DNA from: Bacteroidales bacterium | Lineage (GTDB): Bacteria > Bacteroidota > Bacteroidia > Bacteroidales > UBA12077 | Assembly (NCBI GenBank): GCA_028282585.1 | Contig: JANQHR010000028.1 | Coordinates: 1 to 64,000, forward strand | Reading direction: 5' to 3' | Length of the DNA: 64,000 nucleotides | Part shown: positions 35,909 through 53,111 of the stretch, piece by piece | Position numbering within the stretch: position 1 is the first letter of the stretch | Layout of the letters: every line of letters starts with the position of its first letter | Made by a program: the position numbers and the translations under genes | Notes under the pieces: model-generated | What the model saw: only the letters and a program-made list of their open reading frames with translations | Told to the model about the DNA's origin: nothing | Database searches by the model: none

Positions 35909-36316
35909 TTAACCTATAGATGGTGGTCCTCTGAGGTGATTTGTTTTCGGTAATTGTTCAAAAACAATTTTAGTATGGAAAGTAAAATTATCCGATTTTT
36001 CTGTAATTGGGTATGAAAAAAAGGTACTTTCATTATTTGCTATAAAAGTTTTATCTATTGAAATTCCCGTTAAAACGTCTACATGGAAATGGCACACATG
36101 CTCATGGCGATCATGATTACATTTATGAACCTGTTCATTGTTCAGATCATCATCGTGATTGTGAGAATGGTGGCAATCGTTATGGTGGTCATGTGAATGG
36201 CTCCTATCCGAATAAAACTTCTCGACATGATGGTGATGCGGAATAACGCTATGGGCAAAGATAATTGCCCACGCTAAAAATAAAATAGATAATATTATTT
36301 TTTTGTTCCTTATCAC
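35909..36316 (-). CDS. His-rich leader protein (DUF6769-like) ending in an RGPP arrest-like motif
   Basis: TM/signal helix, IPHHHH, 19 His and 3 Cys in residues 22-78, RGPP at residues 129-132; first gene of the efflux operon. Confidence 0.8.
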   Translation of the reverse strand: MIRNKKIILSILFLAWAIIFAHSVIPHHHHVEKFYSDRSHSHDHHNDCHHSHNHDDDLNNEQVHKCNHDRHEHVCHFHVDVLTGISIDKTFIANNESTFFSYPITEKSDNFTFHTKIVFEQLPKTNHLRGPPSIG

Positions 36317-36405: not shown

Positions 36406-38775
36406 TTATTCATATTTAAGAATGGTTGCAGGATTAGCTCTAGATGCTTTTAAAGATTGATATAATACTGATATCTGGGCAATAAACATAACAAGGATTC
36501 CTGCTAATAAAAAAACGTAGTAATCAAGTCCTGTTCTGTAAGAAAAATTCTGCAGCCATTTATCCAAATAAAAATATGCAAATGGCCAGGCTATTATCAT
36601 CGAAACTATTACCCATTTTGTAAATTCCCATGTTAGCATTCTTGTAATTGTTTGACTGGAAGCTCCGTGGGCTTTTCTTATTCCTATTTCTTTTGTTCTT
36701 CTTTCTGTCATATATGATGCTAACCCAAACAACCCTAAACAGGATAGAAATATGGCTATTGCGGCAAAAATTCCAAAAAGGCTACCTAACTTTTGTTCAG
36801 ACTTATAAAGTTTATCATATTCTTCATTCAAAAACTTAAAATCCATAGGAAATTCACCATTAAACTGATTCCATACTTCATTAATTTCCTTAATTGTCTT
36901 TTGTATTTCTGTACCATCAATTTTTATGAATATATAACCATATACATTTTTATTTAATGCAAGTACTAATGGTTCAACAGGTCTGTGTAAGGATTTAAAA
37001 TTAAAATCTTTCATAATTCCAATTATGTATCCCTTTGTATCCCAGAATTCAAACCATTTACCAATTGGCTCTTTAAGTTTCATTTGTTTTATTGCAGTTT
37101 CATTTAAAATAAAATTAGAAGAATCGGCAGGCCTGCTAAGATCGAAGTTTCTGCCTTCGATAAGATTTATATCAAAAGTTTGAACATATTCATGATCTGC
37201 AAAATACCAGTGAATTAGAACATGATCTTCTTCAGATTGTGTAGTATCCCTATCTTCCCAATCAATTCCTGTTGTAGAATTAACTGTATAAGTTGGAATA
37301 TTATTTGAATAAGTAACATTACTTACACCGCTTAGATTTTTTAATTCGGTTTTTAATGAAAAATAGTTATCATATAAATCACCTCTTATAGATGTATAAA
37401 GAATCTGTTCTTTATTAATTCCCAAATTTCTTTTTTGTATATAATTAAGTTGTTTGTAAACGAAAAAAGTTCCAATAATTAAGGCAATAGATAAAGTAAA
37501 TTGAAATATAACAAGTACTTTTCTAAAAATCGATGATCCTGATTGAACATCTCCTTTTAGCACATTAACAGGGATAAAAGAAGATAAATAAAATGCCGGG
37601 TAACTGCCTGCCAATAATCCCGTGAATAATAGAATTAATAATAAGCCGTATAAAAATTGACCGTTTGAATAATTAACTTCTAAAGCTTTACCGGTAAACT
37701 GATTTATATAAGGTAATAGTAACTCAACACTTATTATTGCTAAAAAATAGGAAATAATGGTCAATATTAATGATTCTCCAATAAATTGAAATATTAACTG
37801 TCGCCGTGAAGCACCTGAAACTTTTCTAATTCCTACTTCGCGAGCCCTTCTGGTTGCCCGGGCTGTTGAAAGATTCATGTAGTTAATAACGACAATCAGT
37901 ATAATTATTAAACCAACAACAGAAAAAAGATAAACATATTGATATTGTATTTCGGTATGTGAATATACATCAATATTAAAATCAGATTTTAAATGTATCT
38001 CACTTAATGGCTGTAAATAGTAAGTTTGATTAATCTCATAATCGTAAACCTCTTGTGCACTTTCCGTAAACTTACTATTCATACTTTTATAATCTGTATT
38101 ATTATCAAATAGTACATATGCATAATAATAGTTATTGTTCCAACTAATATTCCATCCAATTTCTTCCAATCTTTTAAATGGAACTAAAGCATTGAATTGT
38201 AAATGAGAATTTGACGGCACATCTTCAACAACACCAACTACAGTATAAATGCTTGATTGGTTTATCATTATATCTTTTCCTATTGGATTTTCCTGCCCAA
38301 AGCATTTTCTCGCAAATGATTCTGTAATAAGCATACTGGTGGTTAACTCCTTAAATTGTTCAAGAGATCCTTCTTTAATCCTAAAACTGAAAATATCAAA
38401 AAACTCCGGATCGACATAACCGTATCCGTCATCATAAAACTTTTTATCACCGCACGTAAACAATAGCTTACTTGTATATGGCCTAAATCTTGCCGATTTT
38501 AAAATTTCCGGAAACTCTTCATCAAACTTTTTTACCATTGGTGCCGGAGTTGCAGCAACTTTAAACTCACCATCGGTATGTTGTTGAGCTTGTACTAACC
38601 TATATATGGATTCATAATTTTCATGGAATTTATCATAATTAAGTTCATCTAAAATCCATAAATAGATAATCACCGAACATGCTAAGCCCGTTGCTAAGCC
38701 TAAAATATTTATTACCGTGTATCCCTTATACCGAATTAAAAACCGATATGCTATAAGTAAATAATTCCTTAACAT
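36406..38775 (-). CDS. MacB/FtsX-like ABC transporter permease (duplicated-domain type)
   Basis: REVGIRKVSGA and KEIGIRKAHGAS motifs, ends NPATILKYE. Confidence 0.92.
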   Translation of the reverse strand: MLRNYLLIAYRFLIRYKGYTVINILGLATGLACSVIIYLWILDELNYDKFHENYESIYRLVQAQQHTDGEFKVAATPAPMVKKFDEEFPEILKSARFRPYTSKLLFTCGDKKFYDDGYGYVDPEFFDIFSFRIKEGSLEQFKELTTSMLITESFARKCFGQENPIGKDIMINQSSIYTVVGVVEDVPSNSHLQFNALVPFKRLEEIGWNISWNNNYYYAYVLFDNNTDYKSMNSKFTESAQEVYDYEINQTYYLQPLSEIHLKSDFNIDVYSHTEIQYQYVYLFSVVGLIIILIVVINYMNLSTARATRRAREVGIRKVSGASRRQLIFQFIGESLILTIISYFLAIISVELLLPYINQFTGKALEVNYSNGQFLYGLLLILLFTGLLAGSYPAFYLSSFIPVNVLKGDVQSGSSIFRKVLVIFQFTLSIALIIGTFFVYKQLNYIQKRNLGINKEQILYTSIRGDLYDNYFSLKTELKNLSGVSNVTYSNNIPTYTVNSTTGIDWEDRDTTQSEEDHVLIHWYFADHEYVQTFDINLIEGRNFDLSRPADSSNFILNETAIKQMKLKEPIGKWFEFWDTKGYIIGIMKDFNFKSLHRPVEPLVLALNKNVYGYIFIKIDGTEIQKTIKEINEVWNQFNGEFPMDFKFLNEEYDKLYKSEQKLGSLFGIFAAIAIFLSCLGLFGLASYMTERRTKEIGIRKAHGASSQTITRMLTWEFTKWVIVSMIIAWPFAYFYLDKWLQNFSYRTGLDYYVFLLAGILVMFIAQISVLYQSLKASRANPATILKYE

Positions 38776-38918: not shown

Positions 38919-40277
38919 ATGGTAGAAAATAAACTATTGATAATTGATGATGATCAACAATTACTTGATACACTTTCATTAGTACTAAAATATGAGTTTG
39001 AAAAAATCAATACTATTAAAAATCCAAATCTGGTTCCGGAAATAATTAAAAAAGAACGATTTGATGTTGTTTTATTAGATATGAATTTTTCGGCTGGTAA
39101 AACAACTGGAAATGAAGGGTTATTTTGGTTAAGAAAGATTAAAGAATTTGATCCCGAAGCTACGGTTGTTATGATTTCTGCTTATGCAACCATTGATTTA
39201 GCAATAGAAATAATGAAAGAAGGTGCTGTGGATTTCATTTTGAAACCCTGGGAAAATCAAAAGTTAATTGCCACCCTTAAGTCTGCATGTAAGCTAAGTA
39301 AAACTAGGGATGAATTAGCGAAAAGTGAAGCTCTAAATACCTCAATTAATAATGACCTGGAAAGCGAACTCTCTTTAATGGACAGCAGTTCTCCGAAAAT
39401 GCAAAAAGTACTTGATACAATTAAAATTGTTGCGCCAACAGAAGCGAATGTATTAATATTAGGAGAAAACGGAACCGGAAAAGAAGTCATTGCACGAGAA
39501 ATCCATCGTAACTCATTGCGCAAAAACAAATATTTAGTGCAAGTTGATCTTGGTTCAATATCCGAAAGTTTATTTGAAAGTGAATTGTTCGGACACGTAA
39601 AAGGAGCTTTTACAGGTGCAATAGCAAATAAATTAGGCAGGTTTGAAATTGCCAGTGAAAGTACATTATTTTTAGATGAAATAGGAAACATTTCCATTAC
39701 GCATCAAGGTAAGCTATTATCGGCAATACAAAATAAAGAATTTTACCCGGTAGGAAGTGAAAGAATTGTAGAATCTAATGTGCGTATAATCTGTGCAACA
39801 AATAAAAACCTGGAGTTATTGGTTGAAGAAAATAATTTTCGTGAAGATTTACTTTATAGAATAAATACAATTCAATTAGAAATACCACCATTAAGAGATC
39901 GAAAAGAAGATATTAGAAAACTTGCAGAATTTTTCCTTAATCGATTCAACGATAAATACAACAAACATTGCCGGCTGCAGAAAAGTACAATCAAATATAT
40001 TGAATCTTATGATTGGCCGGGAAATATCAGAGAATTAAAACATACAATTGAAAGAGCTGTGATTCTGGCAAACAAAGATCAACTTATAATAGATCAGATT
40101 GGTTCTGTAAAGCATGGAACTGAGATGAAAGCTGAACGTAAAACCTGGAATGAAATCGAGAAATTTTATTTAAGGAAAACTTTTAATAAATATCATGGAA
40201 ATATATCTGAAATTGCACGTGAATTAAATCTTTCGCGTCCATCCATATATCGTAAAATCAAAAAACATGGTTTATAA
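38919..40277 (+). CDS. NtrC-family sigma54-dependent response regulator
   Basis: Receiver LLDMNF, GENGTGKE, GAFTGA, WPGNIREL, Fis-type HTH. Confidence 0.95.
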   Translation: MVENKLLIIDDDQQLLDTLSLVLKYEFEKINTIKNPNLVPEIIKKERFDVVLLDMNFSAGKTTGNEGLFWLRKIKEFDPEATVVMISAYATIDLAIEIMKEGAVDFILKPWENQKLIATLKSACKLSKTRDELAKSEALNTSINNDLESELSLMDSSSPKMQKVLDTIKIVAPTEANVLILGENGTGKEVIAREIHRNSLRKNKYLVQVDLGSISESLFESELFGHVKGAFTGAIANKLGRFEIASESTLFLDEIGNISITHQGKLLSAIQNKEFYPVGSERIVESNVRIICATNKNLELLVEENNFREDLLYRINTIQLEIPPLRDRKEDIRKLAEFFLNRFNDKYNKHCRLQKSTIKYIESYDWPGNIRELKHTIERAVILANKDQLIIDQIGSVKHGTEMKAERKTWNEIEKFYLRKTFNKYHGNISEIARELNLSRPSIYRKIKKHGL

Positions 40278-41601
40278 AAATTTCTACATAGGAATCCTGA
40301 TTATCGCAGTTTCAATTATTGGAACAGCTTACGCAATTAGTTGGATTGGTTTTAATGAGGAATATATTCATACTTTAATATTTTTACATATATTATTTGG
40401 CCTGGAGTTTGTATGGCTCATCACTTTTGTAAATAAAACCAATAGAATGCTGGATAGGTTTTTCTCTTCGATTAAAGAAGATGGCACATCTATTAAATTT
40501 GAGAGCACTATGGAAGAAAGCACCTTTAAATTACTTTCAAAAAGATTAAACAATGTTGTTGAAACCATTCAAAAAACGAGGATTGAAAAAGAAAATGAAC
40601 ATTACTTCTTAAAATATTTGGTTGAGCATATTAATACCGGAATAATTTCTATACTTAATAATGAAAGAATAGATTTATTAAATAAGACGGGAGTAAATAT
40701 TTTAGGCACTCATGAGTTATATAAAATTACAGACTTGAAAAAATTCGGCAAACAATTCTATAACAACATTATACGAATCCGAGCTGGAGAATATTTTCTA
40801 ACCAAAATCATAATTCAAAACGAAATTAAAGACATATCATTACGAGCATCTGAATTTAAGCTTTTTAAAAATCAAGTGAAATTAATATCATTTCATGATG
40901 TCCACCAAGAGATAGAACAAAAAGAAATAGATGCATGGCAAAAAATTATAAGAATACTTGCGCACGAAATTTCAAGTTCTGTCTCGCCAATTCGTTCGTT
41001 AAGCGATCATTTAATTACATTAATTAATAAAGATGATCCAAAATATTTAAATGATGTTAAAGATGGTGTAAATATTATTCATCAAAGAAGTGACGGGTTA
41101 ATGAACTTTGTTTCGAAATACCGACAAGTAACAGATATTCCAGAACCTATATTAAAACCAATATCATTAAATGAAATTATTAGTGATTTAGAGCTTATAT
41201 CCAGCGCAGAATTTAATTTAAAATCGTCGTTAAAAATCCATAGACCCGAAGAAGAAATCTTAATTAATGCCGATAAGAATTTAATTATGCAAGCTGCTTT
41301 AAATATTATAAGAAATGCATCAGAAGCCGTTAAATCAATTTCCAATCCGATGATTAAAATTACAGGAAATGTGAATTACAATAAGGCCGTTCTGGAAATT
41401 ACTGATAACGGTATAGGAATTGACTTCGAAGATCTTGAAAATGTCTTTATACCTTTTTTCAGCACAAAAGAAAATGGTTCGGGTATTGGTTTAGCAATTG
41501 CAAAGCAGTTAATTAATAAACAGGGAGGCCGAATTGATATTCAATCAAAACCGGATAAAGGTACATCCGTTAAAATTTATTTCGAATACTATAAAAATTA
41601 A
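40267..41601 (+). CDS. Sensor histidine kinase (2 TM, PAS-like, HATPase)
   Basis: LAHEI, NIIRNA, DNGIG, PFFSTK and GSGIGL motifs. Confidence 0.92.
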   Translation: MVYKNFYIGILIIAVSIIGTAYAISWIGFNEEYIHTLIFLHILFGLEFVWLITFVNKTNRMLDRFFSSIKEDGTSIKFESTMEESTFKLLSKRLNNVVETIQKTRIEKENEHYFLKYLVEHINTGIISILNNERIDLLNKTGVNILGTHELYKITDLKKFGKQFYNNIIRIRAGEYFLTKIIIQNEIKDISLRASEFKLFKNQVKLISFHDVHQEIEQKEIDAWQKIIRILAHEISSSVSPIRSLSDHLITLINKDDPKYLNDVKDGVNIIHQRSDGLMNFVSKYRQVTDIPEPILKPISLNEIISDLELISSAEFNLKSSLKIHRPEEEILINADKNLIMQAALNIIRNASEAVKSISNPMIKITGNVNYNKAVLEITDNGIGIDFEDLENVFIPFFSTKENGSGIGLAIAKQLINKQGGRIDIQSKPDKGTSVKIYFEYYKN

Positions 41602-44624: not shown

Positions 44625-44664
44625 AAAAAAAGAAGAAGCTATTCTAATTAGAATAACTTCTTCT
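44625..44664. terminator. Terminator between the convergent MBL and TBDR genes
   Basis: AGAAGAAGCTATTCT / AGAATAACTTCTTCT with a flanking A7 tract. Confidence 0.7.
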
Positions 44665-44688: not shown

Positions 44689-47064
44689 CTATAACATGTT
44701 TCCTATTTTAAATCCAAAATATACAGTTCTTGGCAACGATGGTCCGTATAAATATCCCGGATCTCTGTTTATTGTTACATCAAAATCGTCTTGGTAAGAA
44801 TTAAAAATATTCTTCATACCAGCAAATACTTGCATGCTTGCCCCATTTAATTTAAACTGGTAACTTAGCTTAGCTCCAAGGTCATAAAATGGATCAGATT
44901 CTCTTAACTCTCCAATTGGTTCGCCTTCACTATCTACTGGGCTTTCTGTTCCAAAATAAGGAACTAACATACTTCCCGTATACGTTCCTGATACTAATAA
45001 GCTAAATTCTTTATAGAAATCCCAATCAATTGTAAGATAACCATAATTGTTAGGTGTTCTGAAGAAATCTTTCTCATCAAATTCCTGAGCTTCTTCATAT
45101 GCACTCTGTTGAATTGTAAATCCACTGCTAAAAGCAAAATCTCCTTCAGGAACAATATTAAGTTCCATGTTAACACCGCTTACCGTAGCACCTCCTTCGG
45201 CATTAACACGCGTATATGTTACAACTCCATCTACCGGATCTCCATATTCATTGGCAAAGGCGTCAACTAAATCAGTGTAGAAACCTTCAACTAAGAAACC
45301 TGTGTAAACCTTACCCAATTGTTTATTGAAATCAAATGATAACATATAACTGTGACTGGTTTCTTGTTTTAAGTTTGGATCATTATCATGCAATACCCGT
45401 CTTGAACCCGAAGTTTCAATATGCAGATCCTCGTCAAATATTTGCGGAGCGCGATAACCTTGTGAATAACTTGCACGTGCCTGAATTATATCTAAAATAT
45501 CATATTTTAAAGTAAACCTGGGACTTAAAACATCTCCAGTTACACTATGCCCATCTACTTCATCTTCAATTTCATAATGATCATACCTAACACCTGCAGA
45601 AACACTTAAATCATTAAACTTATGTTCGTATTGTGCAAATCCACCATAAATATTTGAAACCTGATCGGCTACCAAAGTATTTTCTGTATGAGTAGTTACT
45701 ATTTCACCACTCACAATCTCATTTACAGGATATCCAAGTTTCTTGTCATTTAAAGTTTCGCCTCTATATTCAAATCCTCCTGTTAAATTTGAGTTCTTAA
45801 AATACGCTGTATACTGGGCTCCAATATTATAAGTTAATCCTTCTGTCTTTCCATAGTCTTGCAATGATTGTTCAGCTCCATAATATGAATCACGGTCAAC
45901 TTTTTGAGCGGAGATAAACATCGAAAGTTTATCACGTTCTCTGAAAAATTGATCGAACGTTACGGCTCCGGTCGTAATATTATGATCAAGAGCTTCAGCA
46001 ATATCAGCTTGGTGTTTTGGTAAATCAAAATCATTTCCACCTCTTCTGTCTTCTTTTATATTAAAGAAATCAATAGCTATTTTGTTTCGATGCGTAAAAC
46101 GGTGAAATACTCTTGTTCCTACCGTTTGATTGTTTAATTGAGTAATCTCGGAGAACCCATCATCATTTGCGTCAAAAAACTCATGATCTCTGTAGTAACC
46201 ATATAAAGCCATACCAGTTCTGCTATCTGAAGATACCAGGGAAGTATTAAAATTTAAATTATAATCAAAAGCAGGATCTCCACTGCCATCAACACCTAAT
46301 CCCATAAAACCGGAAGAAGCTCCTACTTCATAAGAATTGTTTATAGGGTCCTTTAAAATTAGATTAATTGTTCCTGCAATAGCATTACTTCCATAAAGTG
46401 CAGAACCACCACCTCTAATAATTTCCATTCTTTCAATCATATTAGATGGTATAAGTTCTAAACCATAAACTCCCGCTAAACCACTAAAAATAGGTCGGCT
46501 GTTAATTAAAATTTGAGAATAAGGACCTTCCATACCATTCATTCTTACCTGAGAGAAGCCACAATTCTGGCAATTGTTTTCCATCCTTAAACCAGGAGAA
46601 AAATTTAAACCGTCGCTAATTGTAGCAGTTTGTGCTACTTCAAAAAGACGCGGAGTTAGTGTGTTTACAATTACAGATGCTTCCGTTCTGTTTTTTTCAT
46701 TTCTATCGGCTGTAACCACAACTTCTTCTAATCCTAAAACATCATTTTCTAAATGAATTTTCAATTCGATTGTATTTTTCTCTTTTAATTCTACTTCCTG
46801 GCTAAATGGTTTATACCCTATAGCTGATGCCACTAGAGTAAAATTACCAACTGGCATATGAATAAGGTTAAAATGGCCTGTTTCATCTGTCGCTGTTCCA
46901 ATGGTTGTTCCTTTAAGCACCACAGTAGCGAATGGTAAATGTTTTCCTTCAGAATCGACAACATGCCCAACAATATTTGCATCCGTTCTATTTCTTTGTG
47001 CCGAAGCATTTATTGATAAAAAAAGAATTAAAATTAGTTGTGATATATATATAGTTTTTTTCAT
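44689..47064 (-). CDS. TonB-dependent receptor, probably for a transition metal
   Basis: N-terminal carboxypeptidase-regulatory-like domain, LEEVVVTA, plug with CQNC, IERMEIIRGGGSALYGS, FDEDLH. Confidence 0.9.
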   Translation of the reverse strand: MKKTIYISQLILILFLSINASAQRNRTDANIVGHVVDSEGKHLPFATVVLKGTTIGTATDETGHFNLIHMPVGNFTLVASAIGYKPFSQEVELKEKNTIELKIHLENDVLGLEEVVVTADRNEKNRTEASVIVNTLTPRLFEVAQTATISDGLNFSPGLRMENNCQNCGFSQVRMNGMEGPYSQILINSRPIFSGLAGVYGLELIPSNMIERMEIIRGGGSALYGSNAIAGTINLILKDPINNSYEVGASSGFMGLGVDGSGDPAFDYNLNFNTSLVSSDSRTGMALYGYYRDHEFFDANDDGFSEITQLNNQTVGTRVFHRFTHRNKIAIDFFNIKEDRRGGNDFDLPKHQADIAEALDHNITTGAVTFDQFFRERDKLSMFISAQKVDRDSYYGAEQSLQDYGKTEGLTYNIGAQYTAYFKNSNLTGGFEYRGETLNDKKLGYPVNEIVSGEIVTTHTENTLVADQVSNIYGGFAQYEHKFNDLSVSAGVRYDHYEIEDEVDGHSVTGDVLSPRFTLKYDILDIIQARASYSQGYRAPQIFDEDLHIETSGSRRVLHDNDPNLKQETSHSYMLSFDFNKQLGKVYTGFLVEGFYTDLVDAFANEYGDPVDGVVTYTRVNAEGGATVSGVNMELNIVPEGDFAFSSGFTIQQSAYEEAQEFDEKDFFRTPNNYGYLTIDWDFYKEFSLLVSGTYTGSMLVPYFGTESPVDSEGEPIGELRESDPFYDLGAKLSYQFKLNGASMQVFAGMKNIFNSYQDDFDVTINRDPGYLYGPSLPRTVYFGFKIGNML

Positions 47065-47210
47065 CGTATTTTTTTTACAGTTAACTAGATTAACCTTTGA
47101 TTAATGCAAAATATACTTTCGCATATAAAATATTTTATTTTGAAATTAAGTGCCTGAATTATTATTTAATCCTAAACAATTAAATAATTGAATAAATAAT
47201 TAAACTTGAA

Positions 47211-47588
47211 CTAAACTTGTAATGATTGTGACGGCGGTCCACGAGTTTTACGTAAACCCAGGTTAATTGAATTAGAAAAGATACATGGCTTACTTAACAA
47301 TTCTAATTCAACATCTGCATTGAAGCGAAGATTTATAAAATTCTCAAAAGTTGTATATTGCTCAAATGAACTTAAGTAATCTAAGTCTATTCTATTGTGT
47401 CTATGCTTTGCAAGCGGATCATCTTTTTCCGCTCCTTTATCAAAAGGGTGTGCGTGAAAAATTATTTTTTCTGATTCAGTTTTGTGAGCATGAAGAAAGA
47501 ATGTGGAATTAACAATAATTCCTCCCATTATTAATAGGAATAATGAAGTAATAATTCCCTTTCTAATATGCTTATCTCTTCCTTTCAT
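47211..47588 (-). CDS. HxH-rich leader protein ending in an RGPP arrest-like motif
   Basis: TM helix; HAH, HAHP and HRH motifs; RGPP at residues 116-119; upstream of the TBDR. Confidence 0.78.
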   Translation of the reverse strand: MKGRDKHIRKGIITSLFLLIMGGIIVNSTFFLHAHKTESEKIIFHAHPFDKGAEKDDPLAKHRHNRIDLDYLSSFEQYTTFENFINLRFNADVELELLSKPCIFSNSINLGLRKTRGPPSQSLQV

Positions 47589-47596
47589 TCTGTTGT

Positions 47597-47604
47597 CAAA
47601 AGTA
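47597..47604 (-). promoter_or_regulatory. -7 promoter element implying a near-leaderless mRNA
   Basis: Minus strand TACTTTTG-acaacaga-ATG. Confidence 0.6.
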
Positions 47605-47764
47605 AATCAAGCCTTTTAAACCCGCAATACCATATGTTAGGTATTTTGATATTTTAATAACACTGTTAATTTTATAACATGAAGAAACCATAATTACCTA
47701 CTAAGACTTTCCATGTTAGCATACGTTTAATCGAAAAATAGTTCTATGTTTTAAAACACAAAAT

Positions 47765-49114
47765 CTAGAATGTTAATCGAATATTTGTTCCGGCTTCCGA
47801 AGAACTAACATCTATTGAACCTTTATGTAATCGCATTATTTGGCGAGATAAACTTAAACCTATACCAGAACCTTGATCTTTTGTTGTGAAGAACGGTATA
47901 AAAATCTTATCTATAATATCTTGATGAATACCGGGTCCATTATCATTTATACATATTATTACTACATTTCTTTTATCCTTATACGAAACTATTCTTATCT
48001 CACGACTTTCTTTATTACCAAATCCTTCAATCGAGTTTTTAATCAAGTTGATTATTACATGTGAAAGTAATTTCTCATCTGCAATTAAAGCTAAATCATT
48101 AGGGGTAACATTAATATATGTATTGATATTACCTTTTAATAATTCTTCGCTAAATAGTTTTATAATTCTTTCTATAAATTCCTTTAACTTGATTTCATTA
48201 AAGCTTGGATTAGGCAGATTAGTAAGTTGTCTATAATTTGCAACAAAATCTTTTAATCCTATACTTCTATCCTCAATTATTTCTAATCCTTCCAACGTAT
48301 TATTAATAGTGAAATCGCTTATACTTTCTTTATCTATAGCTTTTCCTTTTTTATCTCTGAAATATTTTGAGATTGCGGTTATAGTGGTTGTTATTGGGCC
48401 AATAGAATTCATAATTTCATGAGCTAAAACCCGTATCAATTTTTGCCATGATTCAAGCTCTGTTTCATCTAACTCACTTTTTATATTCTGTATTGAAACT
48501 AATTTTATACGTTTTCCTTGTTGTATTAATTCTGTAGCATTTATTGAAAGTTGTTTAAACTCGTTATCAACATTTAACTTTAATAACCTATTTTCTGATG
48601 GTTTAATTTCTTTCAAAACTCTGGCAAACCCAGTAATTAATCCATCCAACTCGTTAATGTTTTGAATTGATTTTAGATTTAACAGTTGCCTGGTTGCTTT
48701 GTTAATTAAAATAACGTTTCCGTTTTCATCGAACCAGATTAGGCCTGTTGCCACATTCTCAATTGCAGCAGATAAATATTGCGATTTAAGAATATTCTCA
48801 ATTTCCGATTTTTTAATAACTTCTTCAATTTTATATAATGAATCATATAATTTATCAAAAGATTTTCCTTTGTTCCGTGGAAACTTTAAAAAATTATAAT
48901 CTCTATTTATTATGCTTTCGAAAAAATCTGCTAATTCATAATTAATTTTATTCAGATATCTTATCAATAATATGATCTGAATAACCAACAACAGAGAATG
49001 GTTAAGTATTAAAAAAGTTTTTTTTGTTGGTACGGAAAATGCAATTAACAAGCAGGTTGCAACCAAAAGAATTATTCTTACTATTATATTGATATAAAAT
49101 TTCTTATAAACCAT
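47765..49114 (-). CDS. Sensor histidine kinase, paralog of 40267-41601
   Basis: LAHEIMNS, NLIKNS, DNGPG and PFFTTK motifs; same MVYK start as its paralog. Confidence 0.92.
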   Translation of the reverse strand: MVYKKFYINIIVRIILLVATCLLIAFSVPTKKTFLILNHSLLLVIQIILLIRYLNKINYELADFFESIINRDYNFLKFPRNKGKSFDKLYDSLYKIEEVIKKSEIENILKSQYLSAAIENVATGLIWFDENGNVILINKATRQLLNLKSIQNINELDGLITGFARVLKEIKPSENRLLKLNVDNEFKQLSINATELIQQGKRIKLVSIQNIKSELDETELESWQKLIRVLAHEIMNSIGPITTTITAISKYFRDKKGKAIDKESISDFTINNTLEGLEIIEDRSIGLKDFVANYRQLTNLPNPSFNEIKLKEFIERIIKLFSEELLKGNINTYINVTPNDLALIADEKLLSHVIINLIKNSIEGFGNKESREIRIVSYKDKRNVVIICINDNGPGIHQDIIDKIFIPFFTTKDQGSGIGLSLSRQIMRLHKGSIDVSSSEAGTNIRLTF

Positions 49115-49121
49115 TTTCTAA

Positions 49122-50492
49122 TTAATTATGCAATCCATATTTTTTGAGTTTTCTTATTAAAGTAGTTCTGGCAATTTTTAATTCATTTGCTGTATGACTA
49201 TGATTCCATTTATGTTTTTTAAGTACTTTCAAAATGGCATGCTTCTCAATTTCATCAAGAGATAGCTTGTCTGTTGGGCTTATAAACTCATTATCAACTC
49301 GCAAATCTGAAATGGTTATTGTATTAAAGTCTGATAGAATTACCGCCTTTTCAATAGTATGCCTTAATTCTCTGACATTTCCCGGCCAGTGATATTTTTG
49401 CAGGTTCCCGATTGCACTATTATCAAATTTCATATTTGTTTTACCATATCGTGATGCGTATAAATTAAGATAATGATTTGCAATTTCAATAATATCTTGT
49501 TGTCTTTCTCTTAATGGCGGCACTTCTATTTCTATTGTGTTGATTCTATAAAGCAAATCTTCTCGAAATAAGTTGTTAGCGACAAGTTTTTTTAGGTCCT
49601 GATTTGTTGCTGAAATTAATCTCACATTTATTGGCACTTCTCTATCTGCGCCAACCTTCGTAATAGCTCTTTTTTCCAACACTGATAGCAATTTAACCTG
49701 CATTCCAATCGACAAATTTCCAATTTCATCCAAGAATATTGTTCCTCCTGAAGCAGATTCAAATTTCCCTGCCCTTTCTTCCTTTGCATCTGTAAATGCT
49801 CCTTTTAGGTGTCCGAACAATTCACTTTCAAAAAGTGTTTCACTAATTGCTCCAAGATCAACTCCAAGAAAAATCTCATCTTTTCTTAAGGATCTTCTGT
49901 GAATTTCCCTGGCAATCAACTCCTTTCCAGTCCCATTCTCACCCAATAATAAAATATTAGCATCTGTTTCTGCAACTTTATCAATTTTTGAAAAGATATT
50001 TTGCATAACATCCGATTTACCAATAATTTTTGAATAGTTTTTATTAATATTCTCAGTCAAATGCTTTTGCTTTTGTTTTAAGCTACCAACCTCTCTTATT
50101 GATTCTCTTAGTTTTAAAGCATTTTTTAAAGTTGCAATAAGTTTATTATCCTCCCAGGGTTTTAAAATGAAATCTGTTGCCCCCTCTTTCATGGCATTCA
50201 CCGCAAGGCTTATATCTCCAAATGCGGTAATCATTATGACCATAATATCCTCGTTATATTTCTTAACTTCCTTTAGCCAGAATAGTCCCTCGGTACCAGA
50301 ATTGATGCCCGTTTGAAAATTCATATCAAGCAATACAATGTCATAATCATCTTTTCTAAGTGACTCTAAAGTTAGGTTAGGATTGCTTATTGTTTTAATA
50401 CATTCAAATTCACCAGACAATAAAAGTTCTAATGCTTTCAATAAACTTTTGTTATCATCAACAATTAAGATTTTACCTTTTACGTTTTTCAA
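49122..50492 (-). CDS. NtrC-family sigma54-dependent response regulator
   Basis: LLDMNF, GENGTGKE, GAFTDA and WPGNVREL motifs; TTG start. Confidence 0.94.
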   Translation of the reverse strand: MKNVKGKILIVDDNKSLLKALELLLSGEFECIKTISNPNLTLESLRKDDYDIVLLDMNFQTGINSGTEGLFWLKEVKKYNEDIMVIMITAFGDISLAVNAMKEGATDFILKPWEDNKLIATLKNALKLRESIREVGSLKQKQKHLTENINKNYSKIIGKSDVMQNIFSKIDKVAETDANILLLGENGTGKELIAREIHRRSLRKDEIFLGVDLGAISETLFESELFGHLKGAFTDAKEERAGKFESASGGTIFLDEIGNLSIGMQVKLLSVLEKRAITKVGADREVPINVRLISATNQDLKKLVANNLFREDLLYRINTIEIEVPPLRERQQDIIEIANHYLNLYASRYGKTNMKFDNSAIGNLQKYHWPGNVRELRHTIEKAVILSDFNTITISDLRVDNEFISPTDKLSLDEIEKHAILKVLKKHKWNHSHTANELKIARTTLIRKLKKYGLHN

Positions 50493-50699: not shown

Positions 50700-53111
50700 A
50701 TGTTTTGGAATCATTTTAAAATAAGCTTTAGAAAAATAATTAATGACAAAATTTTTTCTATTATAAAGATACTTGGCCTGGCAATTAGTATTGCGTGCAG
50801 TATACTTATATTCCAATGGGTAAGCAATGAACTTAGTTATGATAAATTTCATCCCGGTTATGAAAGAATTTACAGAGTGGTTGAAAGTATAGGCAGGGGG
50901 TCAAAAACAACCATGTATGCTCCTATTTGCGGACCGGCTGGTGCTGCAATAAAAGAAAAGTATCCTCAAGTAAAATACTCTGCCAGAACTTATGTAAGGG
51001 GAAATTGGTTATTTAAATACCAGGACAAATCATTTTATGAAAATAAAATGATAATATCCGAACCTGATTTACTGAAAATATTTAAAATACCTTTAATTAA
51101 AGGCAATCCTGATGACGCTTTGGTAAAACCTAATACATTATTAATTACTGAAAGTACTGTAAAGAAATACTTCGGGAATGAGGATCCTATAGGGAAAGTA
51201 ATGAAAATTAATACAAATGAATATGAAATAACAGGAATCATTAAAGATAGTTACGATAATTCCATTTTAGAATATGATTTTATTGCTTCATTGTCTACAT
51301 GGAAAGATTGGGACCAACTCAATAATTGGTACAATACAATGTTTTTTACTTATATCAAACTTCTGCCCGATATAGATTTTGCAGCATTCGAAAAAGATAT
51401 TGATACATTAGCATATCACTATATTGCTGATGATTTGAAAGAAAACGGTTATAATATTAATTTTAAATTAGAACCAATTGCAGACGTACATTTAAATGAA
51501 CCTTTACGATTAGATAAAAATACTCACGGTAATAAAATTTATATATACATATTCTCTATTATTGGAATATTTATTTTGATAATTGGAAGTGTAAACTTCA
51601 TGAACCTTTCCACTTCTAAGAACATTAATAACTTTAAAGAAATAGCTATAAGAAAAATAGTCGGCGGAACCAGAAAGTTTATTATTTCTCAGTTTCTCAT
51701 CGAATCTGTAATATTAAGTTTCATTGCGCTTAATATTGCACTATATACTGTCGAGTTAATTCAAACCGCATTTAATAATCTTGTAGGAAAGGATTTAAAT
51801 ATAGAGTATTTTAGTAATTGGTGGATATTACCAGGCTTAATTATTTTCGGAATATTATTAGGGATTTTATCAGGACTTTATCCCTCGATATATTTATCTA
51901 TTGTGAAACCAGTTGACATTTTTAGAAATGAAAAAAGTAGAAATTCGATTAACTCGTATGTTCGAAAAGGACTAGTAATTATACAATTCGCAATATCAAT
52001 TACATTAATTATTGCTTCATTCATTATTTATTTACAGGTAGATTATATGAAAAATCGTAATCTTGGTTTTAATAAATCAAATAAAGTTGTTTTACCGGTA
52101 AGAGGCGGAATTGATATAGAGCAAAATTATGAAGAGGTTAAAAGCGAATTTCTTTCTAACTCAAACATTACTAACGCCTCTGTATCTTCAAGTTCAATTG
52201 GGAATGATGTTAATAATTATGCGGCATCTTTGGACAATGAAAATGACAACAAATCTCAATCCATGTATTACATGCATATTGATGATAATTTTATTAAACA
52301 ATTCGATATAGAGTTAATTGCCGGAAGAAACTTTAATAAAAATATAGTATCTGATATTTCTTCATGGGATAACAGGGAAAATGGGTCCTTTATTTTAAAC
52401 GAAGCTTCAGTTGAATCGTTTGGATGGTCTTCACCCGAAGAAGCAATTGGACAAGAGATTATTACAGGATTAGGTGGTCGTAAATTAAAGGTGGTAGGCG
52501 TGGTTAAGAACTTCCACTTTATGGGACTACAGAATAAAATTGAGCCTCTCATACTAGAGTTTTTTCCTGACCAGTTTAGAACTATAAATTTGAGTATTAA
52601 TGAAGTCGATATTAAATCTTCTTTAAAGTTTATTGAAAATAAATGGAATGAACTTTATCCTGAAAATCCTTTTGTATATTACTTTATTGATGAAGACTTT
52701 AACAGACATTATATTGAAGAAGTAAAAGCTGGTAAGCTTGTTAGCCTATTTACAGCTTTTGGAATATTTGTAGCTTGTTTAGGGTTATATGGACTAACTT
52801 TATATTCTGCAGAACAAAGAACCAAAGAAATTGGAATAAAAAAGGCATTGGGAGCTTCGGTGTATACTATTGTAATGAATATGTCAACTGGGTTTATATG
52901 GCTTGTAGTTTTATCAAATATTATAGCATGGCCATTAGTTTATTATTTCATGAATAAATGGCTGTCAAATTTCTCTTATAAAATTGATATGCCATATTGG
53001 ATTTACGTTATATCTGGTTTATTAACTTTAATAATAGCCCAATTAACGATTAGTTTACATGCAGTTATTGCTGCCAATAAAAATCCAGTTGAAGCTCTAA
53101 GGTATGAGTAA
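50700..53111 (+). CDS. MacB/FtsX-like ABC transporter permease
   Basis: KEIAIRKIVGG and KEIGIKKALGAS motifs, ends NPVEALRYE. Confidence 0.92.
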   Translation: MFWNHFKISFRKIINDKIFSIIKILGLAISIACSILIFQWVSNELSYDKFHPGYERIYRVVESIGRGSKTTMYAPICGPAGAAIKEKYPQVKYSARTYVRGNWLFKYQDKSFYENKMIISEPDLLKIFKIPLIKGNPDDALVKPNTLLITESTVKKYFGNEDPIGKVMKINTNEYEITGIIKDSYDNSILEYDFIASLSTWKDWDQLNNWYNTMFFTYIKLLPDIDFAAFEKDIDTLAYHYIADDLKENGYNINFKLEPIADVHLNEPLRLDKNTHGNKIYIYIFSIIGIFILIIGSVNFMNLSTSKNINNFKEIAIRKIVGGTRKFIISQFLIESVILSFIALNIALYTVELIQTAFNNLVGKDLNIEYFSNWWILPGLIIFGILLGILSGLYPSIYLSIVKPVDIFRNEKSRNSINSYVRKGLVIIQFAISITLIIASFIIYLQVDYMKNRNLGFNKSNKVVLPVRGGIDIEQNYEEVKSEFLSNSNITNASVSSSSIGNDVNNYAASLDNENDNKSQSMYYMHIDDNFIKQFDIELIAGRNFNKNIVSDISSWDNRENGSFILNEASVESFGWSSPEEAIGQEIITGLGGRKLKVVGVVKNFHFMGLQNKIEPLILEFFPDQFRTINLSINEVDIKSSLKFIENKWNELYPENPFVYYFIDEDFNRHYIEEVKAGKLVSLFTAFGIFVACLGLYGLTLYSAEQRTKEIGIKKALGASVYTIVMNMSTGFIWLVVLSNIIAWPLVYYFMNKWLSNFSYKIDMPYWIYVISGLLTLIIAQLTISLHAVIAANKNPVEALRYE

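Follow-up and report, generated by a model that had tools for sequence, protein, structure and literature searches.

The histidine-rich open reading frame (ORF) that directly precedes a TonB-dependent receptor gene in the Bacteroidales genome studied here probably encodes a leader peptide that acts in cis and detects a divalent transition metal before it has left the ribosome. This reading is drawn from sequence comparison and from analogy with characterised arrest peptides, and a wiring like that of CruR from Bordetella pertussis is favoured, not assumed. The ORF lies in a 64,000-nucleotide stretch of contig JANQHR010000028.1 (assembly GCA_028282585.1), hereafter the window, and heads an apparent two-gene unit with the following parts:

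47211–47588, minus strand: six-histidine leader ORF, candidate metal-sensing arrest peptide, 125 aa, ATG start (ORF list and family profile).
47496–47555, minus strand: N-terminal hydrophobic helix, residues 12–31, behind a basic N-terminus (hydropathy, AlphaFold model and relatives).
47484–47492, minus strand: H33-A-H35, strand 1 of a predicted beta-hairpin (invariant in 150/150; strand 32–36 in the model).
47445–47456, minus strand: H45-A-H47-P48, strand 2 of the predicted hairpin (H45, H47 and P48 invariant; strand 42–46).
47397–47405, minus strand: H62-R-H64 (invariant); H62 lies 54 residues from the arrest arginine, the modal distance (54 in 111/148).
47232–47243, minus strand: RGPP arrest-type motif, residues 116–119 (R 94%, K 5%, PP 99% in 151 aligned sequences).
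44689–47064, minus strand: TonB-dependent receptor, 791 aa, the putative regulated target, with plug motif CQNC (C165/C168, nt 46561–46572) and near-invariant H548 (Pfam).
44631–44664, minus strand: intrinsic-terminator-like hairpin at the end of the two-gene unit (sequence).

The original prediction, made from the DNA letters, had named a transmembrane helix, the three HxH motifs, a spacer and RGPP at 47232–47243, with 146 nt between the ORF and the receptor ATG at 47064. All of these elements are present, the distance is confirmed, and the helix is backed by hydropathy (best 19-residue Kyte-Doolittle mean 1.93, residues ~12–31) as well as by an AlphaFold model (pLDDT 79, pTM 0.38). In this model helix 2–31 is followed by a beta-hairpin that carries four of the histidines, a short helix, a long helix and a loose tail. 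Judging from its sequence, the N-terminal helix is a probable signal anchor with its N-terminus inside. A fold search of the model against the PDB (Foldseek, E ≤ 0.001) returned no match, and the protein, which contains a single cysteine, matched no model in Pfam or NCBIfam (0 Pfam families at E ≤ 1).

The leader belongs to a large Bacteroidota family that has no Pfam model. Built on 22 proteins (query included) that a word search had retrieved, the family profile gathered 965 clusters (50% identity, E ≤ 0.001), of which the best 150 served for the family statistics. All six histidines and P48 are invariant in these 150 relatives at ~20–30% identity, and the tails read RAPP (83), RGPP (34), RSPP (13) or otherwise (20, mostly RPPP or KxPP, plus one fragment). 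Between the histidine block and the tail the 150 relatives share not one conserved residue, yet the length is fixed: the HxHP motif stands 70–71 residues from the arrest arginine in 101 of 129 and the last HxH 51–58 residues from it in 147 of 148. CxxC is rare (2 of the 150 representatives, 4 of 157 genomic leaders) and cysteine is nowhere conserved. An N-terminal hydrophobic stretch (KD19 > 1.6, from hydropathy only) occurs in 94% of 148 relatives. A second hydrophobic segment, centred 30–38 residues before the arginine, occurs in 70% of the same 148 but is weak in the protein of the window, which leaves the topology of the leader uncertain. Since the family profile itself contained RGPP, we also ran a profile-free reverse test on 80 metagenome loci chosen by their receptor alone, 72 of which had enough upstream DNA. 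A histidine leader precedes the receptor in 62 of these 72 (54 distinct) and ends in [RK]xPP in 62/62; three further loci have RAPP variants, and in seven another ORF is nearest. The expectation that homologs would keep HxH and R[AG]PP around a variable spacer is thus borne out by alignment and reverse test alike, with the refinement that spacer length is fixed. As (near-)invariant features of the family, the histidines and the RGPP motif are far beyond chance.

Profile matches occur in at least 122 of 301 genomes of the order and at least 14 of 401 of the phylum, counts that are lower bounds, with 11–14 candidates scored per genome; the related named records are Bacteroidales. Gut species are included: leaders of B. 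finegoldii and P. distasonis score 1e-16 to 1e-18 against the profile, and two tandem leader units, BT_RS02460 and BT_RS02470 (the latter being BT0503), are found in B. thetaiotaomicron. One P. distasonis leader, BDI_RS01110, is of the efflux type. For the genes behind the leaders we took 148 regions around matches (tandem matches merged, one contig-end fragment excluded), which with the three of the genome under study gave 157 leaders, 152 of them with an [RK]xPP tail. A receptor of one and the same cluster follows 124 leaders, 13 head RND operons of the CusB/CusA/TolC type (CusA/CzcA, heavy-metal efflux), three head ZnuA/ABC-3 operons, 15 head other genes and two lie at a contig end; the profile was seeded from a receptor-type leader, and these shares may favour receptors. 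The other targets include DUF6686-flavodoxin-DUF2023 operons (some continuing into HmuR/HmuY), HmuY-like genes with a haem-type receptor, and hemerythrin/LuxR pairs, while four small first genes have no annotation. Apart from receptors, the target classes that have an annotation consist mostly of metal-homeostasis genes. Tandem arrays (L040, L061, L068, L071, L129) have a separate leader for each unit. The genome under study holds two paralogs of the leader, one ahead of a close receptor copy and one, ending in RAPP, ahead of DUF6686, flavodoxin, DUF2023, TonB receptor and HmuY genes (L005 2606–7631, G000:C147).

The receptor of the window has plug, barrel and CarboxypepD_reg-like domains in Pfam. 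Of 120 full-length members of its cluster, 94% retain C165, 93% C168 and 99% H548; the cluster was built by single linkage and holds ~12 members without CxxC. A search for a solved orthologue gave only partial, distant matches, and a search of plasmids matched only Bacteroidota receptors. In Chondrinema (L183 6356–6721, NZ_CP111047.1) the same receptor stands without a leader in front, and behind it come a DUF6660 protein with a terminal HPP and then a CusA/CzcA gene; DUF6660 may be another arrest-type leader. Elsewhere in the window, positions 35909–36316 (minus strand) encode a second RGPP-ending leader of another type, with a GTG start, 135 aa, a hydrophobic N-terminus and PHHHH and CxH motifs; it gives a weak DUF6769-like score (E 0.18) and no match to the six-histidine profile, and lies 88 nt ahead of an operon for a membrane-fusion protein, a 1031-aa RND protein and a TolC-like protein (35820–30030). 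The locus is flanked by two similar pairs of a sigma-54-type response regulator and a histidine kinase (38919–41601, plus strand; 47765–50492, minus strand), each adjoining an ABC-permease-like gene (36406–38775 and 50700–53111); the scan covered the second pair.

The DNA around the leader contains four further features:

47597–47604, minus strand: -7 promoter element TAnnTTTG, 8 nt before the leader ATG (sequence; upstream of 105/136 leaders).
47065–47210, minus strand: 146-nt leader-receptor gap without TAnnTTTG, candidate attenuation region (sequence and gap statistics).
47161–47188, no strand: 10-bp A/T-only inverted repeat with an 8-nt loop (sequence; not conserved in the family).
47626–47645, no strand: operator-like palindrome AATACC-N8-GGTATT, 37 nt before the leader ATG (alignment of close relatives).

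TAnnTTTG, which we take to be the -7 promoter consensus of Bacteroidota, was expected ahead of only 15 of the 136 leaders. Inside the gap between leader and target it occurs in four of 136 cases against 13.6 expected, and 30% of control gaps have one. With its promoter before the leader and not in the gap, the target probably depends on the promoter of the leader, an arrangement that fits control in cis. Promoter placement and the tandem leader-receptor units thereby support the CruR-like layout and cis logic that had been proposed for the locus. In many relatives the element lies 4–10 or 16–21 nt before the ATG, so that the leader mRNA should be nearly leaderless. The gaps have a median length of 128 nt and a first 40 nt richer in pyrimidines than in controls (59% vs 50%), contain fewer terminator-like hairpins (16/103 vs 29/100 control gaps) and show a weak C>G skew (+0.056 vs +0.001), and Rho is encoded in the genome under study. 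These sequence traits fit a possible attenuation of the Rho type. We found no conserved RNA structure in the gaps above control level (hairpin z -1.52 vs -1.50), and an Rfam L20-leader match in the gap (E 0.18, far below the gathering score) was set aside as chance. The inverted repeat at 47161–47188, to which attention had been drawn earlier, does exist, but a regulatory role for it is not supported: repeats of at least 10 bp turn up in 3.2% of 1000 gap shuffles and in 8.7% of the 103 leader gaps, compared with 11.6% of 679 control gaps from the genome under study, and among nine aligned relatives only the closest (L171) keeps it. At this ordinary frequency we reject it as a regulator common to the family.

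The palindrome upstream of the promoter points to a further level of control. A matrix built from 41 sites of other genomes finds four strong sites in the genome under study, against 0–1 with permuted matrices: ahead of the leader of the window, the flavodoxin/HmuY leader and feoAB, and ~370 nt before the third leader (beyond the window, G000:C135:30473, C147:26567 and C147:59519). An exact version of the pattern is present in 40 of the order's 301 genomes, compared with 2 for a reversed control; 38 such loci comprise eight before feoAB, six before a leader (by profile) and 24 before other genes, several of which resemble, by eye only, hemerythrin-domain, FeoB-associated or receptor genes. At up to two mismatches it precedes only 34 of 135 leaders and is thus lineage-limited. 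Because the feoAB and flavodoxin/HmuY promoters share the palindrome, the locus of the window is tied to an iron-type regulon, and a separate repressor-type protein probably binds there as a second, iron-type layer; four Fur-family genes are present in the genome. No published box matching the palindrome was found in the sources available to the literature search. At three loci (L304, L301, L302) the palindrome lies directly ahead of TonB-receptor-like genes with no leader between; the N-terminus of the L304 product resembles, by eye, the receptor of the window.

How might such a leader act? CruR (Bp2923, DUF2946/PF11162), encoded in the B. pertussis operon cruR-bfrG(crtA)-bp2921 (PMC9426467), is likewise a small exported-type upstream ORF (uORF) with a TonB-dependent receptor as its target. 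In both, the leader comes first in the operon with the metal-transport gene behind a long gap (162 nt for CruR, 146 nt in the window), and a ligand motif is separated by a constant number of residues from the RAPP-like motif at the C-terminus. CruR depends on RAPP, on CxxC and on the distance between the two, and works via Rho (PMC9426467); RAPP and RGPP hinder translation, and in vitro CruR is arrested at RAPP (PMC12992588). The differences are equally plain: CxxC in CruR versus six histidines here, a spacing of 45 versus 54–71 residues, Proteobacteria versus Bacteroidota, a leader family that often has a second hydrophobic segment, and a receptor of another family (plug CxxC, N-terminal extension). 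Neither the window protein nor its genome has a DUF2946 match, and DUF2946 is absent among 25 of the 53 families listed for 150 members, the remaining families having one member each. By analogy, the six-histidine leader probably works like CruR and CutF, with a sensor unrelated to DUF2946 (no HMM match, no CxxC). Among named clusters, the one closest in language-model features (0.94) is DUF6769 (PF20558), His/Cys-rich small proteins of similar size from the same phylum; only 123 of 256 features are held in common, however, the window protein has no HMM match to it, and it too is absent among the 25 families listed for 150 members. The class of RAPP uORFs before TonB receptors is already published: the source table of a genome survey of RAPP/RGPP uORFs (PMC12992588) has at least 219 occurrences of four H[AS]HP[FY] words, nearly all matches listed being six-histidine family members, with rows from B. 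thetaiotaomicron, P. distasonis and P. vulgatus. There the family is present as unnamed rows, and the available text of the survey was not found to name, align, single out or test it. A literature search, largely of journals outside subscription, found no paper that defines or tests the family.

On this basis it is appealing to propose the following sequence of events. The single promoter before the leader would, as the motif statistics suggest, transcribe leader and receptor together. The N-terminal helix would engage the Sec translocon and, from the class of the motif, the ribosome would be expected to stall at RGPP. As the last HxH lies ~54 residues ahead of the arrest site, the histidine hairpin would then stand just outside the tunnel and translocon, probably in the periplasm, where metal on the six histidines would change folding or pulling force and with it the lifetime of the stall. 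Without metal, the stalled ribosome would shield the pyrimidine-rich gap from Rho and the receptor would be made; with metal, the stall would be released and transcription would end in the gap. If the model holds, we lean slightly towards this CruR-like wiring as the likeliest one at an importer locus. The polarity whereby metal releases the stall and switches the receptor off is tentative in view of the efflux targets, the reverse wiring of CutF and the equal rise of BT0503 and BT0504 described below. Because 13 of the 157 leaders head CusA/CzcA efflux operons, a single fixed polarity across the family is disfavoured.

These efflux operons lend some credit to a different use of the same cis-acting arrest sensor, in which metal prolongs the stall and switches the target on, or the leader reads a toxic competitor (Ni, Co, Zn or Cu) and gates an importer of the iron regulon against that metal. 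CutF of Rhodobacter capsulatus, likewise a co-translationally exported sensor with a proline-rich stall tail, has the same layout as CruR with opposite polarity and stalls in response to Cu (PMC9973294; bioRxiv 2025.02.05.636593), and the CutF-like set includes His-only clusters 14 and 17 and many Bacteroidota members (PMC9973294). The His-only clusters precede HupE/UreJ (PMC9973294), however, a neighbour not among the annotated target classes here. The palindrome may already give iron control, freeing the leader to read something else. Against this stands that the targets are mostly importers (124 receptors, three ABC-3 operons, haem-type receptors). CutF moreover has CxxxC and unmasks a Shine-Dalgarno stem-loop over a short gap, whereas the present family has no conserved cysteine, its gaps fold no better than controls and their median length is 128 nt; Bacteroidota mostly do without Shine-Dalgarno sequences. 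In addition, the CzcA-type operon BT2038-40 of B. thetaiotaomicron rises 2.5–3.3x on chelation (PMC10434189), so that "efflux" genes may not need the opposite polarity. We therefore regard a CutF-like polarity or purpose as rather improbable.

It is quite improbable, too, that the leader is a secretion or envelope monitor of the SecM/ApdA type, in which pulling by Sec or YidC on the second hydrophobic segment releases the arrest and the histidine cluster is structural or secondary. The leader shares an N-terminal export signal and R-[AG]-[PG]-P arrest chemistry with SecM, ApdA and ApdP, the first RAPP-like motifs came from Sec/YidC monitors (PMC7897499, PMC10987492), most members have the hydrophobic segment 30–38 residues before the arginine, and the major targets are all exported proteins. 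The annotated first-gene classes of the 157 leaders, four small unannotated first genes aside, are metal-transport genes and the like and include no sec or yidC; flavodoxin and LuxR/hemerythrin are cytoplasmic, and six invariant histidines and metal-related targets would be left unexplained. Similarly small is the chance that the product is a stable membrane-anchored metal chaperone or receptor partner acting in trans, with RGPP merely slowing its own synthesis: a membrane anchor and a histidine cluster suit a periplasmic metal carrier, and leader and receptor mRNAs move together in published data (PMC10434189), but the C-terminal half keeps its length without conserving a single residue, retention of RAPP/RGPP needs a reason when these motifs are depleted in proteomes (Bacteroidota mean bias 0.14–0.17, PMC12992588 supplement 1), a dedicated partner would not be expected in every unit of a tandem array or beside unrelated targets (RND, ABC, flavodoxin), and in some loci the receptor 5' region has no leader.

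For the metal that a cis-acting arrest sensor would read, Fe(II) is our first, tentative choice. Iron is favoured by the operator shared with feoAB and by the leaders in front of flavodoxin, HmuY and hemerythrin/LuxR genes, which in Bacteroidetes are under strong iron control (PMC10434189). In B. thetaiotaomicron treated with dipyridyl, BT0503 (leader) rises 2.39x and BT0504 (receptor) 2.43x (PMC10434189, Table 7); this small and equal response of about 2.4x argues against iron, and hmu and fldA rise ~300x in the same data. In colitis the pair rises 8.9x and 4.9x, and P. gingivalis PG2006 and PG2008 rise 3.2x and 2.0x, the membership of PG2006 being as given there (PMC10434189); PG2008 is also mentioned as regulated without a metal assignment (PMC12119571, PMC4493947). 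The available B. thetaiotaomicron tables of PMC10434189 give no sign of a rise in read-through over the leader, and its available main text does not name BT_RS02460 or BT_RS02465. Ni or Co is possible. The genome under study encodes a NiFe-type hydrogenase (E 2.5e-13) with HypA on the same contig, which we count for nickel, as we do the appearance of Bt0502, inferred from gene order to be BT_RS02465, as a background contaminant of a His-tag pull-down (PMC12578637). On the other side, B. thetaiotaomicron is not among the control genomes matching either family of the nickel comparison, yet has two leader units. Nor do leaders clearly co-occur with NiFe hydrogenases: they are found in 21 of 44 genomes with a NiFe hydrogenase (E ≤ 1e-20, a cut-off that misses some hydrogenases, including that of the genome under study) versus 101 of 257 without (p = 0.32, related genomes not being independent). 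The CzcA and ZnuA/ABC-3 targets keep Zn, Mn and Co in consideration; Zn or Mn is a more doubtful candidate, and any other metal is unlikely.

Metal-sensing ribosome arrest has so far been shown for copper, in CruR and CutF (PMC9426467, PMC9973294), and the regulation of metal uptake in Bacteroidota has been called poorly known (PMC10434189). Our analysis contributes the reverse test, the statistics on promoters, efflux operons as a class of targets, the connection to expression data from B. thetaiotaomicron and an operator in common with feoAB. Taken together, it is tempting to propose, with some reserve, that the family may constitute a cysteine-free nascent-chain sensor of Fe(II) or a different divalent metal, copper excepted, widespread in Bacteroidales including gut Bacteroides and Parabacteroides, which would read the periplasmic pool through its six histidines, could control importers as well as exporters and would, in one lineage, stand under a previously undescribed feoAB-type operator. 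The six-histidine family is a defined candidate, with invariant residues and spacing known and two tandem copies in the genetically tractable B. thetaiotaomicron, and the shared operator opens another way into the iron regulon that environmental Bacteroidales possess. If the proposal is true, arrest-peptide sensing would for the first time have been shown for a metal beyond copper, and a gap in the picture of metal regulation in the phylum would be filled.
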